DNA of 36,503 nt from a virus (Duplodnaviria > Caudoviricetes). The notes beneath the pieces were generated by a model, which saw only the letters and a list, made by a program, of their open reading frames with translations, was not told where the DNA came from and ran no database searches. Below are positions 3,362-19,581 of this stretch, one piece after another. Within the stretch, counting starts at the first letter, position 1, and every line of letters starts with the position of its first letter. The stretch lies in IMG/VR virus record IMGVR_UViG_3300008255_000075, positions 1 to 36,503 of that record. One strand, given 5' to 3'. Position numbers and translations under genes: made by a program.

Positions 3362-3511
3362 GATTATTTACTAAAGCGTGGTGTGATAAGGTTTGGAATT
3401 TCGCCAAACATTGGTGATGCCGTCTAGCTACTAAAATATTTTAGACCACTAAACGCTTGTAAAGATTTACGCTTTCTACCACTCATCACACTCACGCTTT
3501 AATAAACAATC
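3362..3511 (-). ncRNA. tRNA-like structured RNA 2 (not a canonical tRNA)
   Basis: ~29-bp closing stem with G-U pairs on the minus strand; UG then a D-arm-like GUAGA..UUUAC; T-arm-like GUUUGG-CGAAAUU-CCAAAC abutting the closing stem. Confidence 0.7.
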
Positions 3512-3512
3512 T

Positions 3513-3778
3513 TGTATCGCCTATGCCATTCTTCAGCGATACATACGGTGTTATAACAGGTCAGACACCTCACAATGGCACCGTAATTTTTGTAGCTGAC
3601 CATCTATAGTTGACTTCAGGTCATTTAACTTAAGATACCAATAAAAGGTTACCCAACTTCTCAACAGGCTTAAGCACTACAAAGTTGGCTGAGTTTGTAG
3701 TGATAATTCACTACTTATAGCAGATTAGATAGTGTAAAAGGACTATGCCTAATATACTTTACAAACCTGCTAAAAGTA
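3513..3778 (-). ncRNA. Array of intergenic hairpins
   Basis: Stems at 3513-3543, 3544-3585, 3675-3702 and 3712-3778; no ORF in the track here. Confidence 0.5.
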
Positions 3779-16883: not shown

Positions 16884-16919
16884 ATGTTGACTGATTTTAA
16901 ACCCCATTTTGACAATGCT
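16884..16919 (+). CDS. Major capsid protein, exon 1 (MLTDFKPHFDNA)
   Basis: ATG after an AT-rich leader; ends in U paired to a G of the internal guide; joins exon 2 in frame. Confidence 0.88.
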
Positions 16920-17100
16920 TAACTTGATAGGCTCTTGAGAACAATAGAAATATTGAAGCTCATAGGAAACGGCTTTAATTCGGTGGAACTCCAAGCTATT
17001 TAAAATAGATGGACAATACCGAGCCAGCAGAGAGAATTACGAAAGGTCTCTCGGGCGTGTGTGACGGTCAGAAAAATGACTAATATAATAAGCAAACTAT

Positions 17101-17754
17101 ATGAAAAAACATATTGAATTGCCGAAGGAAGTAAAAGAGTATTGTATAGGTTTTTTTCTAGGAGATGGTTATCTCTTTAAGATAAAAAACGGAAACAATT
17201 GTTCATTGAAAATCGGTCACGGACTAAAACAAGAGAACTATTTGATTTGGAAACATAAACTTCTTAATAATTTATCACGAGAGATAAAATATACTCGTAT
17301 AGACGACAAAAGAAGAAATAAGGTTTACCACATTAAAAGTTTTGAAACTCGGACTCACAAGTTTTTTACTCGCTATTGGGAACTTCTTTATCATAAAGGA
17401 AAAAAGAAGCTCCCCGAGCGGATACTAAAACAAATGACTCTAATAACATTGGCAGCGTGGATTATGGACGATGGGTGTCTTTCGGAAAACAATAAGAAAA
17501 GAAGGACAACAAATTGGAATTATACACTTGCTACTCATTGTTTTTCAGTGATTGAAATTCAATTACTTCTTAGGTATCTAGAAGAAAAATTTGGATTAGA
17601 AGGTAAGATGCATAGAGATAGAGATAAGTTTAAACTTTGGTTTAATACCACTAATTCTATAAAACTTGCTAACCTAATAAAACCTTATGTTCCCGAATGT
17701 ATGGAATATAAAGTCAAACCAATATTAGAAAGATACATAGTCAGGGGTGAATAA
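17101..17754 (+). CDS. Intron-encoded double-motif LAGLIDADG homing endonuclease (I-SceI-like)
   Basis: Motifs YCIGFFLGDGYL and LAAWIMDDGCL; C-terminal IKPYVPECMEYK. Confidence 0.92.
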   Translation: MKKHIELPKEVKEYCIGFFLGDGYLFKIKNGNNCSLKIGHGLKQENYLIWKHKLLNNLSREIKYTRIDDKRRNKVYHIKSFETRTHKFFTRYWELLYHKGKKKLPERILKQMTLITLAAWIMDDGCLSENNKKRRTTNWNYTLATHCFSVIEIQLLLRYLEEKFGLEGKMHRDRDKFKLWFNTTNSIKLANLIKPYVPECMEYKVKPILERYIVRGE

Positions 17755-17798
17755 ATATAATCCCCATTAAAAAGCCGACAGAAGAAGTAATTTGTTTT

Positions 17799-17828
17799 TT
17801 GACAATATAATAATTAATGTGTTATCAT
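17799..17828 (+). promoter_or_regulatory. Intron-internal sigma70 promoter for the HNH-like ORF
   Basis: TTGACA-18nt-TATCAT with TG extension, 26 nt upstream of ATG 17855. Confidence 0.65.
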
Positions 17829-17854
17829 AAGGTTATAATTATTAAAATAATCTT

Positions 17855-18316
17855 ATGTGGAACGACAAGGAGAAGCAACGAGCATATAATCTAAAATACC
17901 GTCTTGAAAATAAAGAAAGGTTAAAAAAACTTCAAGATGACTACTATGCTAAAAATAGGCTTAAAAGGATTAAATCCGCTAGAGATTATAATATTAAAAA
18001 CAGAGAGTTAATTAATAAAAAAAGAACTACAATACGGCATACGCCAATAGGCAGACTAAAGTCTATAATAAGTAGTGCTAAGACTAGAAAAATTGATTTC
18101 TTTTTAACTAATAACGAAGCTGTTGATATAATGTCTAAACCTTGTTTTTATTGCGGTGATAGTATCCCAGTTGGAATAGATAGAATAGATAGTAATTTAG
18201 GATATACAATAGAAAACTCTGTTGCTTGTTGCTCTATGTGTAATTATATGAAAAAAGATTTTACACAAAAAGACTTTATAGAGCAATGTAAAAAAATATC
18301 TTCTCACATTAAATAA
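17855..18316 (+). CDS. Intron-encoded HNH-like (beta-beta-alpha-metal) endonuclease
   Basis: Basic helical N-terminus; PCFYCG..GIDRIDSNLGYTIENSVACCSMCNYMK. Confidence 0.85.
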   Translation: MWNDKEKQRAYNLKYRLENKERLKKLQDDYYAKNRLKRIKSARDYNIKNRELINKKRTTIRHTPIGRLKSIISSAKTRKIDFFLTNNEAVDIMSKPCFYCGDSIPVGIDRIDSNLGYTIENSVACCSMCNYMKKDFTQKDFIEQCKKISSHIK

Positions 18317-18414
18317 TTATATTATTAAAACAAATATTATACCCTGTATGATATGACCTGAACACCATAGAAATATGGTGAAGGTGGAAATAGAAAGCCA
18401 CCGATAACATTCTG

Positions 18415-19581
18415 TATCAAGAAACCTTCCTTAAAACATTGGTTGGTAAATCTATTGCTAACCTCCGCTTTAAGGACTTAGCTAAGATGGGTGAAAGTGT
18501 TGAGCGTGTTGCTTATGACCTTTCTGGTGTTGTTGTCCGTTCCACTGTGCGTGGTTCTGCTTCTACTATTGACGCTGTGACTGACTCTTCTGAGCTGTTG
18601 CTGGTTAATGTAGAAAAGGAAGCTGTTATTCACATCTCTGATGGTGAAGCTACACAAGCTGGTCCTTTAAATCCAGGTGAGCAGATTGGTGCTGAAATTG
18701 CACATATGGTATCTCAAGACTTAGACGCTCGTATTCTCTATGAGACTAAGAGTGCTTTATTAGCTTTTGATACTGGCGATTTGACTACTGGTGTTTCTAC
18801 TGGTGTCCCAATCACTCTATCTAGCACAACTGTTCCTCAGATGACTACTCGTATGGCTGCTAAATTAGGTAGCAATAACCAAGTGTTGACTAACCTTGTT
18901 TGGGTTGTTGACCCTTATATTGCTTCTGATATTGAACAGTATCTAATGGGTAAGAGTATTGACCTTGCTGGCTTCGTCTTTAAGAATGGTTATAGTGGTC
19001 CAGTGCGTAACGCTGACCTTTACATCTCTAACAACCTGACTGGTGAAGCTGTGTTGACCTTCTCTAGTGGTTTGGCTTCTGATGGTGATACTATTACTAT
19101 TGGCGGTGTGGTCTTTACTTTGAAGACTTCATTGAGTTCTGGTCCTGCTGTTGCTGGTGAAGTTGTGTTAGGTTCTACCTTTGCTGACACCATCACTAAC
19201 TTGGCTGCTGCTATCAACACTCCTGGCACTACCACTTCTACCTTCACTGCTTTGAGTGCTGCTAACCAAGCTATTATTAGTAACACTTTGAAATTAGTTG
19301 CTACTGGCACAGCTACCACTCTGACTATTGTTGGAACTGGTTCTGGCCGTATGACTATTTCTGAGTCTGCTACTAATGTTGCTTTGACTTACAACTTTAT
19401 CCACTCTTACTTTGGTAAGAAAGGTGGTATTGATGTAGTGGTTCAGAACTTTAAGCCTGTTGATATGCGTCCTACTGATGACCGTAGAGGAACTAATATC
19501 TTTAGTTCATACCTCGCAGGTATCAAAGTTTTTGCGGATGGTGCCAAAAAGTACCTCGATGTTAAGATAATCGTAGCTTAG
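18415..19581 (+). CDS. Major capsid protein, exon 2 (spliced product 400 aa)
   Basis: YQETFLKTLVGKSIANLRF... in frame with exon 1; follows the scaffold; strongly T-ending codon bias typical of high expression. Confidence 0.88.
   Translation, partial: YQETFLKTLVGKSIANLRFKDLAKMGESVERVAYDLSGVVVRSTVRGSASTIDAVTDSSELLLVNVEKEAVIHISDGEATQAGPLNPGEQIGAEIAHMVSQDLDARILYETKSALLAFDTGDLTTGVSTGVPITLSSTTVPQMTTRMAAKLGSNNQVLTNLVWVVDPYIASDIEQYLMGKSIDLAGFVFKNGYSGPVRNADLYISNNLTGEAVLTFSSGLASDGDTITIGGVVFTLKTSLSSGPAVAGEVVLGSTFADTITNLAAAINTPGTTTSTFTALSAANQAIISNTLKLVATGTATTLTIVGTGSGRMTISESATNVALTYNFIHSYFGKKGGIDVVVQNFKPVDMRPTDDRRGTNIFSSYLAGIKVFADGAKKYLDVKIIVA

Follow-up and report, generated by a model that had tools for sequence, protein, structure and literature searches.

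A capsid-gene group I intron of a phage with two predicted endonuclease genes, one of which may home into sister introns

How do two unlike endonuclease genes come to share one intron, and what would each of them target? The question is raised by a complete 36.5-kb phage record with terminal repeats (IMG/VR record IMGVR_UViG_3300008255_000075; here called the window, meaning the whole stretch of 36,503 nucleotides (nt) that was analyzed). Its major capsid gene is interrupted by a group I intron with a LAGLIDADG gene looped out of stem P7.1 and a second open reading frame (ORF), ORF2, looped out of stem P8. The original prediction saw a double invasion here, with a possible division of labour between homing and a maturase or competitor-phage role. 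Double invasion is supported by sister introns at the same capsid site that carry no ORF, the P8 ORF only, or a decayed P8 ORF. A division of labour is plausible as well, and the comparative data favour exon-site homing versus invasion of intron cores over the maturase and interference roles. In the model that we put forward, and to which we give an even chance, the P8 enzyme would home the intron into capsid alleles and the LAGLIDADG enzyme would home into sister introns. Taken singly, cleavage of intron-free capsid alleles by the P8 enzyme, moving the whole intron, is probable, and we lean slightly towards a LAGLIDADG enzyme that would cut any sister intron at its intact P7/P7.2 junction, where the cassette would be copied in.

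The boundaries of the intron are given by alleles that lack it. The exon junction is uninterrupted in 30 of 31 IMG/VR relatives, exactly at the window splice site (FDN[AST]/Y[QEA], the slash marking the junction), and the remaining relative (locus L002) has a 339-nt intron at the identical site. Among 118 further homologous proteins, 107 are continuous over the junction and 11 are called from the exon-2 boundary, the latter probably being mis-called intron alleles. Self-splicing would restore a capsid protein of 400 amino acids (aa), joined at GACAATGCT/TATCAAGAA. Because the intron opens with an in-frame stop directly after codon 12, as had been predicted, splicing would be needed for the capsid protein, and the retention of the 12 N-terminal residues in 107/118 homologues likewise makes obligatory splicing likely. 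TTG 18439 was considered as the real capsid start and rejected, the additional 20 residues being present in 107 of the 118 homologues. The exon-2 product is modelled with an HK97-type capsid fold (predicted local distance difference test, pLDDT, 83; Foldseek E 6e-10 to phage capsids), and terminase, portal, and scaffold-like genes lie upstream of the split locus, in the head module; fold and position both fit an HK97-fold major capsid protein as the product of the split gene.

Sister introns were gathered by DNA patterns and by family profiles, which matched 53 loci, many of them duplicates; the metagenome scan used two N-terminal patterns on 43 of 64 parts and the 3′-core viral scan covered 38 of 64 parts, so that the counts given here are lower bounds. 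We favour homing of the LAGLIDADG gene into introns because its cassette occupies the same core nucleotide in unrelated capsid genes, on cores that do not form a clade. In another phage (L117), a cassette that is also 673 nt long sits at this nucleotide, identical to that of the window at 582 of 673 nt and encoding a protein of 87% aa identity. The intron that holds it (L101, L117, and L307) lies after codon 2 of a different capsid gene (PHROG 1357), for which the best blastp match to the window capsid has an E value of 1.5. The second ORF of the L117 intron is a classic HNH gene at its 5′ end, and this intron is a second two-nuclease intron in the family. Since the same enzyme is found at two exon junctions that differ at 12 of 22 nt, the exon junction is an unlikely target of LAGLIDADG. 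Both catalytic Asp residues are kept in the alignment with I-SceI (GFFLGDG, D22; AWIMDDG, D124), and the ratio of nonsynonymous to synonymous substitution rates (dN/dS) between the window and L117 genes is 0.12, with a dS of 0.59. The final codons of the ORF extend through P7.1′ into P7.2. A different phage with an intron at the window site (L308) is identical at 107 of the first 111 cassette nt, whereas its 5′ core agrees at only 92 of 109 columns. In run X1, one contig piece, with 22 differences over 17652-17861, continues from the LAGLIDADG end into a P8 extension with a start codon; this piece and L308 may be one element, and run X1 may be the source of the window.

Transposition of the whole intron with LAGLIDADG aboard was considered and is disfavoured by approximately unbiased (AU) tests, which reject the cassette-bearing cores as one clade for cores without ORFs (p 0.00057), without P7.2/P8 (p 0.0012), for the 3′ part alone (p 0.040), and for the 5′ part with L308 (p 0.00069). 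The 22-mer of the cassette-free junction is found with at most one mismatch in 13 of 19 sister introns and with at most two in 15 of 19, and the window has no match to it within five mismatches. The LAGLIDADG protein is rare: it belongs to a cluster of 8, its next relative is 35% identical, and none lies between 87% and 35%. It was found in 0 of 28 candidate stretches of GTDB genomes and in 0 of 4 sister-bearing records (three of these incomplete or unscored), and 50,697 annotated phage records gave matches under 31% identity only.

ORF2 had been called HNH-like and placed in P8; the location holds, the class does not. PacI is its top match by sequence, weakly (E 0.14), and by fold (E 4.7e-4, the sole match under 0.001; template modelling score about 0.5), and no Pfam HNH match was found. 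The pair D109-R110, Y117, N121, and five Cys (C97, C100, C125, C126, and C129) are invariant in 55 aligned relatives. The catalytic His is missing, Arg110 standing at the start of the beta-beta-alpha motif, and the PacI-type features of a loop Tyr for this His and two Zn-binding Cys clusters are present, together with a long N-terminal helical arm. On these grounds, ORF2 is predicted to be a PacI-like His-Me finger (group 20) rather than a classic HNH enzyme, with cleavage as its predicted activity. We take it for a probable homing enzyme because intron-borne copies, about 50% identical, were seen only at the window capsid site (five loci and one remnant). There are dozens of full-length relatives at 46-71% identity, and a search of viral contigs gave 8 distant loci; ORF2 may, as this distribution suggests, be an old associate of the capsid-site intron. 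In L034, a free-standing PacI-like ORF, 35% identical to ORF2, lies directly downstream of the capsid gene (L034:4784-5248), besides the intron-borne copy.

We propose that the P8 enzyme is the older resident of the intron and LAGLIDADG the later invader. The PacI-like enzyme would cut an intronless capsid allele, and the whole intron would be copied in. The LAGLIDADG enzyme would cut the conserved P7/P7.2 junction of a cassette-free sister intron, whatever its host gene; the cassette would be copied into the cut intron and could afterwards also ride with it. Insertion would destroy the enzyme's own predicted target, about 22 bp centred on GTCA, and would add stem P7.1, so the ribozyme would still fold. 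LAGLIDADG enzymes make staggered cuts, and the central 4-nt GTCA of the repeat would, speculatively, fit such a cut. Each nuclease is likely transcribed from its own intron promoter, and on the capsid pre-mRNA a hairpin would mask the P8 start codon, as happens with T4 I-TevI. The fuller claim, that a LAGLIDADG enzyme has abandoned exon targets and now homes into the catalytic core throughout an intron family, alongside a PacI tyrosine-type homing enzyme and in a capsid-tropic group I subfamily, is made tentatively and with somewhat less than even confidence.

The promoters predicted for the two genes are of the sigma-70 type. The spacing of the LAGLIDADG promoter-like site is unchanged in 3/3 cassette-bearing introns, and a sigma-70-like site with 11/12 matches stands at the start of the P8 extension in 6/6 introns, taken as the best site per 70-nt window and without a shuffle control. 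On the long transcript, the ORF2 AUG is paired in the window, L034, and L074 and partly paired in L105 and L067. No convincing I-TevI-like operator resembling the exon junction was found close to the two promoters, where the best candidates agree at 11 and 10 of 16 nt. The ORF-less intron of L002, which probably lost its nuclease gene, has retained the P8 extension together with a promoter-like site of 11/12 matches (L002:3860-3890) that would fire into capsid exon 2.

Movement of the cassette might involve no cutting of introns at all. It could be a passenger moved by ordinary homologous recombination through its core flanks, or an old resident that was repeatedly lost when the stretch between the GTCAG repeats was deleted, as would fit flanks almost invariant through the family, the 5-nt direct repeat at the cassette bounds, the Erf-, NinB-, and NinG-like recombination proteins encoded by the window phage, and the rarity of the cassette. 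We consider this unlikely, however, since purifying selection (dN/dS 0.12) and intact catalytic residues need a function, and since ancestral presence would require precise loss in 19 of 21 cores and is a misfit with the 107/111-nt identity on diverged cores. The function might instead be that of a maturase that binds the ribozyme family and speeds splicing of a heavily used capsid mRNA, its help being the reason for its retention and exchange. A LAGLIDADG maturase is reported, in the available part of the source, for a Thermotoga 23S intron (PMC3984707), and a helper of this kind would explain why LAGLIDADG tracks the ribozyme family, not the exon site, while under purifying selection. Against it, 19 of the 21 cores lack the gene, six of them at the same site, both catalytic Asp are kept, and maturase activity alone offers no route of spread; it seems quite unlikely to us as the explanation, although the LAGLIDADG protein might have it as a further activity.

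Competition between phages can involve intron nucleases, and some strands predicted to contact DNA are not the same in the window and L117 proteins, as might be expected if both intron enzymes cut outside the intron and LAGLIDADG targeted the exon junction or a gene of a competing phage (redundant homing or interference). This is improbable, because the host junctions differ at 12/22 nt though the proteins are 87% identical, and because a free target elsewhere would leave insertion at one core nucleotide unexplained. Splicing itself could be bypassed if a transcript from the P8 promoter entered exon 2 and the last three bases of the intron started a capsid protein minus 12 residues. All seven complete same-site introns end in an in-frame NUG (CUG in the window; AUG, UUG, or CUG in sisters), ORF-less L002 retains the promoter, and window phage genes lack Shine-Dalgarno motifs. 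But U-G is a usual end of a group I intron, CUG is a poor start, the L002 promoter is accounted for by recent ORF loss, and the 12 N-terminal residues are kept in 107/118 homologues; we hold the bypass to be very improbable.

Several points weigh against the two-tier model of P8 homing and LAGLIDADG invasion or against its parts. The core trees are built from 79-203 columns of RNA that was cut by hand and covaries, few of their branches are supported, and recombination between cores may occur. Documented cassette-bearing introns number three (one cut off by a contig end), plus the possible L308 duplicate piece, and an efficient invader with many targets would be expected in more than 2/21 full cores. 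The conserved flanks, the presumed target, also permit exchange by ordinary recombination, the GTCAG repeat permits precise loss, and a dS of 0.59 implies that the transfer between window and L117 was not very recent. On the side of the P8 enzyme, the sequence likeness to PacI is weak, PacI is an 8-bp restriction enzyme, and the second PacI-like ORF of L034 stands free, outside the intron. The window-wide promoter scan was at chance (16 found, 12.6 expected), and with transcription from the P8 promoter the AUG becomes unpaired in L034, L074, and L105, though in the window and L067 no more than partly so. As for the ribozyme, an Rfam scan gave no RF00028 (group I) match on the window, and local folding at the 5′ end is no stronger than in shuffles (z -0.69).

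The pairings of the ribozyme core (Table 1) were located by reading the sequence, and covariation was scored in 21 distinct cores with both halves, a set that omits duplicates, 600-nt loci, and L095 and L124, which have no 5′ match. P3 is paired in 129/147 cells, P4 in 104/105, P7.2 in 84/84, and the P8 base in 63/63, with several pair types per position and compensatory changes in each of the four; none of 2000 strand shuffles equalled these counts, in a comparison that ignores relatedness. Covariation in these stems and the continuous relatives both uphold the claim that a group I intron splits the capsid gene, and the core elements first named were recovered at or near their predicted places, P7.1 exactly. 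P7 (A[C]GGUCA/UGACCU) is identical in 21/21 cores and hence uninformative for covariation; its G-binding site follows the variant rule of an A-U pair plus a bulged C. It is unlike the Rfam consensus P7, GACUA/UAGUC, and RF00028 also found no match on the compact ORF-less sisters L002, L046, L097, L110, and L114. This model misses some group I subgroups, according to the available part of one report (PMC11878797). Local folding at the 3′ end is above shuffles (z -3.1). The P10/P1 guide layout is common to 7 same-site sister introns; P1 in the window is GCU/GGC, and exon 1 ends in U (-1) in 8/8 same-site introns, this base being variable in intronless alleles.

Between P7 and P3′, the window has two stems, P7.1 and P7.2, versus a single one in the 19 cassette-free sisters, because the second stem arrives with the LAGLIDADG cassette. 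Two stems, P7.1 and P7.2, in this place are characteristic of subgroup IA2, that of the classic phage introns. A twintron or two tandem introns were considered and rejected, the family profiles giving a single 5′ and a single 3′ core match at the window locus (L032) and Rfam none. The P7.1 strands GACUA/UAGUC resemble a canonical P7, and no other element of an inner intron was seen. In addition, the cassette 5′ end can pair back on the P7 5′ strand (GGUCA/UGACU hairpin, 17066-17082), and such a hairpin could hold back ribozyme activity until transcription has reached P7.1′, 660 nt further on.

Table 1. Coordinates of the split capsid gene, its intron, and the predicted elements within the intron (window positions)
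Feature	Position	Strand	Description
Major capsid gene, exon 1	16884..16919	+	12 codons, MLTDFKPHFDNA; same as N-terminus of continuous relatives
Group I intron, phase 0	16920..18414	+	1495 nt; in-frame UAA at 16920, omega-G 18414; boundaries from intronless relatives
Internal guide sequence	16923..16932	+	P10 CUUGAUA 16923-29 with exon-2 UAUCAAG, 7 bp; P1 GGC 16930-32, U.G at 5′ splice site
P2, GAAA-capped	16936..16962	+	Missing in several sisters, e.g. L308 and L034
5′ ribozyme core	16970..17070	+	P3 5′ strand, J3/4, P4-P5-P6, J6/7, P7 5′ strand (A, bulged C, GGUCA); P6 by eye only
P3	16970-76/17771-77	+	Pairing read from sequence
P4	16980-84/17018-22	+	Pairing read from sequence
Predicted sigma-70 promoter of LAGLIDADG gene	17061..17089	+	GTGACG-17-TATAAT, 10/12 matches; -35 box is intron core sequence
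P7	17064-70/18354-59	+	A[C]GGUCA/UGACCU; pairing read from sequence
LAGLIDADG cassette	17071..17743	+	673 nt; GTCAG direct repeat at both bounds, closing stem P7.1; missing from 19 sister cores
P7.1	17077-82/17738-43	+	Closing stem of LAGLIDADG cassette
Double-motif LAGLIDADG endonuclease	17101..17754	+	217 aa, I-SceI-like; PF03161 E 1.7e-34; I-SceI E 5e-12
P7.2 stem-loop and P3 3′ strand	17744..17777	+	P7.2 strands 17744-47/17762-65
P8 with long extension	17778..18347	+	Base 17778-81/18344-47; arms 17788-17815/18312-18339 loop out ORF2
Predicted P8-gene promoter and hairpin	17799..17857	+	TTGACA-18-TG-TATCAT (17799-17828); 11-bp hairpin 17826-36/17847-57 over ORF2 AUG
PacI-like His-Me finger endonuclease, ORF2 (predicted)	17855..18316	+	153 aa; CxxC, DR, GY, N, CCxxCN; PHROG endonuclease VII/HNH
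3′ core	18348..18414	+	J8/7, P7 3′ strand 18354-59, P9 18363-80, P9.1 18383-87/18398-402, omega-G
Major capsid gene, exon 2	18415..19581	+	388 aa; in frame with TTG 18439

The survey of homologous introns found members with zero, one, and two ORFs. The ribozyme family is almost confined to head genes and is missed by RF00028: sister introns interrupt capsid genes that belong to no fewer than five other PHROG major-head families (1357, 9953, 1328, 267, and 3437), an assignment that held for 8/8 exon-2 products tested, and they also occur in a small gene, not matched to a known family, that lies between the scaffold and capsid genes (L039, L046, L100, L107, and L112). Four of the five introns in this small gene, around positions 3400-3700 of the oriented loci, have an ORF at the 5′ end whose reading frame continues across the P3-P7 core. 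Three loops of the family bear ORFs, namely the 5′ end, P8, and P7.1, and classic HNH genes lie at the 5′ end in L117, L100, L039, L046, and L152. At the window site itself, introns carry no ORF in L002 and L114, the P8 ORF only in L034, L074, and L105/106/108, an internally deleted P8 ORF in L067, and the LAGLIDADG cassette in the window and L308. L002 and its intronless near-twin L003 have only 3 differences in the 250 nt that surround the site (-4, -1, and +3), a pattern that co-conversion during homing, or else adaptation to the guide sequence, would give. Cassette-free sister introns were present in the same run as the window phage (joints 17030-17742 and 17071-18351), which may be the window's own source. 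A pattern scan of viral contigs for other introns with an occupied P7.1 gave 68 loci with one family member (L255, the L117 phage again), and the compact core had no match in the 50,697 annotated phage records. The L117 intron (L117:116-1505) has an in-frame UAG at its start and an in-frame AUG at its end; therefore, a nearly complete capsid protein could form without splicing. A second, weaker family-like intron lies further along the same capsid region in L152 (4062-4653), and the contig of L110 has, besides its family intron, a second, canonical group I intron that is unrelated to the family (L110:1666-1866, minus strand; RF00028, 67 bits).

The rarity of such an intron was overstated in the original prediction. 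Capsid-gene group I introns have been described in mycobacteriophage LittleE and lactococcal phage Tuc2009 (PMC3706429) and in crAss-like phages (PMC7886860). As far as the available parts of these reports go, they share with the window an endonuclease-bearing intron in the major capsid gene whose efficient splicing is required, but they have one ORF per intron, another ribozyme, and other hosts. LAGLIDADG and HNH genes have also been described together in a phage, in the DNA polymerase intron of Bacillus phage phiNIT1 (AP013029), which splices in vitro and was read by its authors as two successive introns (PMC11878797, available in part). In the record (L318:1280-2880), the P, Q, R, and S elements occur once each, the LAGLIDADG gene falling between P and Q and the HNH gene between R and S, and the intervening sequence shows a single ribozyme core that holds both ORFs, in contrast to the two introns of the printed account. 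Like the window, phiNIT1 thus has a single ribozyme from which two genes are looped out separately, one of the LAGLIDADG_2 type (PHROG 11023 in both phages) and one of the His-Me/HNH type; unlike it, the host gene is a polymerase, P7 is the canonical GACUA/UAGUC, LAGLIDADG (30% identical) lies in the P5 region, and the HNH is classic. No ORF movement between introns is reported in the available part of that paper (PMC11878797).

Such movement has a parallel in the biorfic introns nad1-i4 and cox1-i7 of Podospora anserina mitochondria, in which an optional second ORF transfers into single-ORF alleles (PMC4964425, available in part and citing primary work). As in the window compared with L002, L034, L074, and L105, a group I intron with a resident ORF there occurs in two allelic forms, the optional ORF being present or absent at a single intron position; the differences are the fungal mitochondrial setting and transfer between alleles of one intron and site rather than, as proposed here, between sister introns in unrelated genes. 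For a like transfer in the window family, driven by the endonuclease and leading into ORF-free introns, the support is phylogenetic. The T4 td, nrdB, and nrdD introns (I-TevI, II, and III) have an intron promoter, a hairpin over the start region on the long transcript, and an ORF end that overlaps the core (available part of PMC2988022). The window resembles them in these three respects and differs in that the T4 introns hold single GIY-YIG or HNH ORFs in DNA-metabolism genes and use T4 late/middle rather than sigma-70-like promoters. PacI has a loop Tyr in place of the catalytic His, and viral group-20 members are listed as possible restrictases, not intron-encoded (available part of PMC5714182). 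ORF2 shares with PacI the fold, the DR..GY..N..CxxCN motif, and the Tyr for the catalytic His, whereas PacI is a stand-alone restriction enzyme and ORF2 is intron-borne with a long N-terminal arm. In the open-licence literature, with subscription papers outside the scope, we found no description of the window ribozyme family, no cassette common to phage introns at unrelated sites, and no intron-encoded PacI-type enzyme. Capsid introns and one phage ribozyme with two nucleases (phiNIT1) are already known; added here are an RF00028-missed head-gene ribozyme family, a P8 nuclease confined among introns to one capsid site, and a cassette that recurs in an unrelated capsid gene.

The lasting interest of the locus lies in the apparent intron-to-intron movement of the LAGLIDADG cassette. 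Invasion of introns by endonuclease genes is usually inferred after the fact; with natural alleles of zero, one, and two ORFs, the cassette, and a predicted 22-bp target in hand, it could be tested directly. If our model is true, an enzyme that targets the ribozyme core would escape the exhaustion of empty exon sites, its targets being other introns. Its cassette could then jump between unrelated phages of one host, the family being spread over many head genes, and the enzyme would cut any co-infecting phage with a cassette-free sister intron. A PacI-type intron nuclease would likewise add a catalytic variant to the homing enzymes of phages. Capsid genes of uncultured phages are meanwhile probably mis-annotated, 11 of 118 homologues being called from the last codon of an intron that is invisible to Rfam.

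The host is likely a member of the Parcubacteria. One Parcubacteria metagenome-assembled genome (MAG) contains a 65% relative of the window capsid protein, and KKR15411.1, a cluster-mate of the window LAGLIDADG whose sequence is that of the L117 protein, is annotated in another Parcubacteria MAG; phage contigs can be mis-binned in such assemblies. Glycosyltransferase- and methyltransferase-like ORFs, recognized from motifs by eye, lie right after the capsid gene of the L117 phage (L307:3774-6527). Within the window, the gene starts inspected between 11405 and 32384 are mostly preceded by A/T-rich sequence ending in AAT or TAT, with no Shine-Dalgarno motif.

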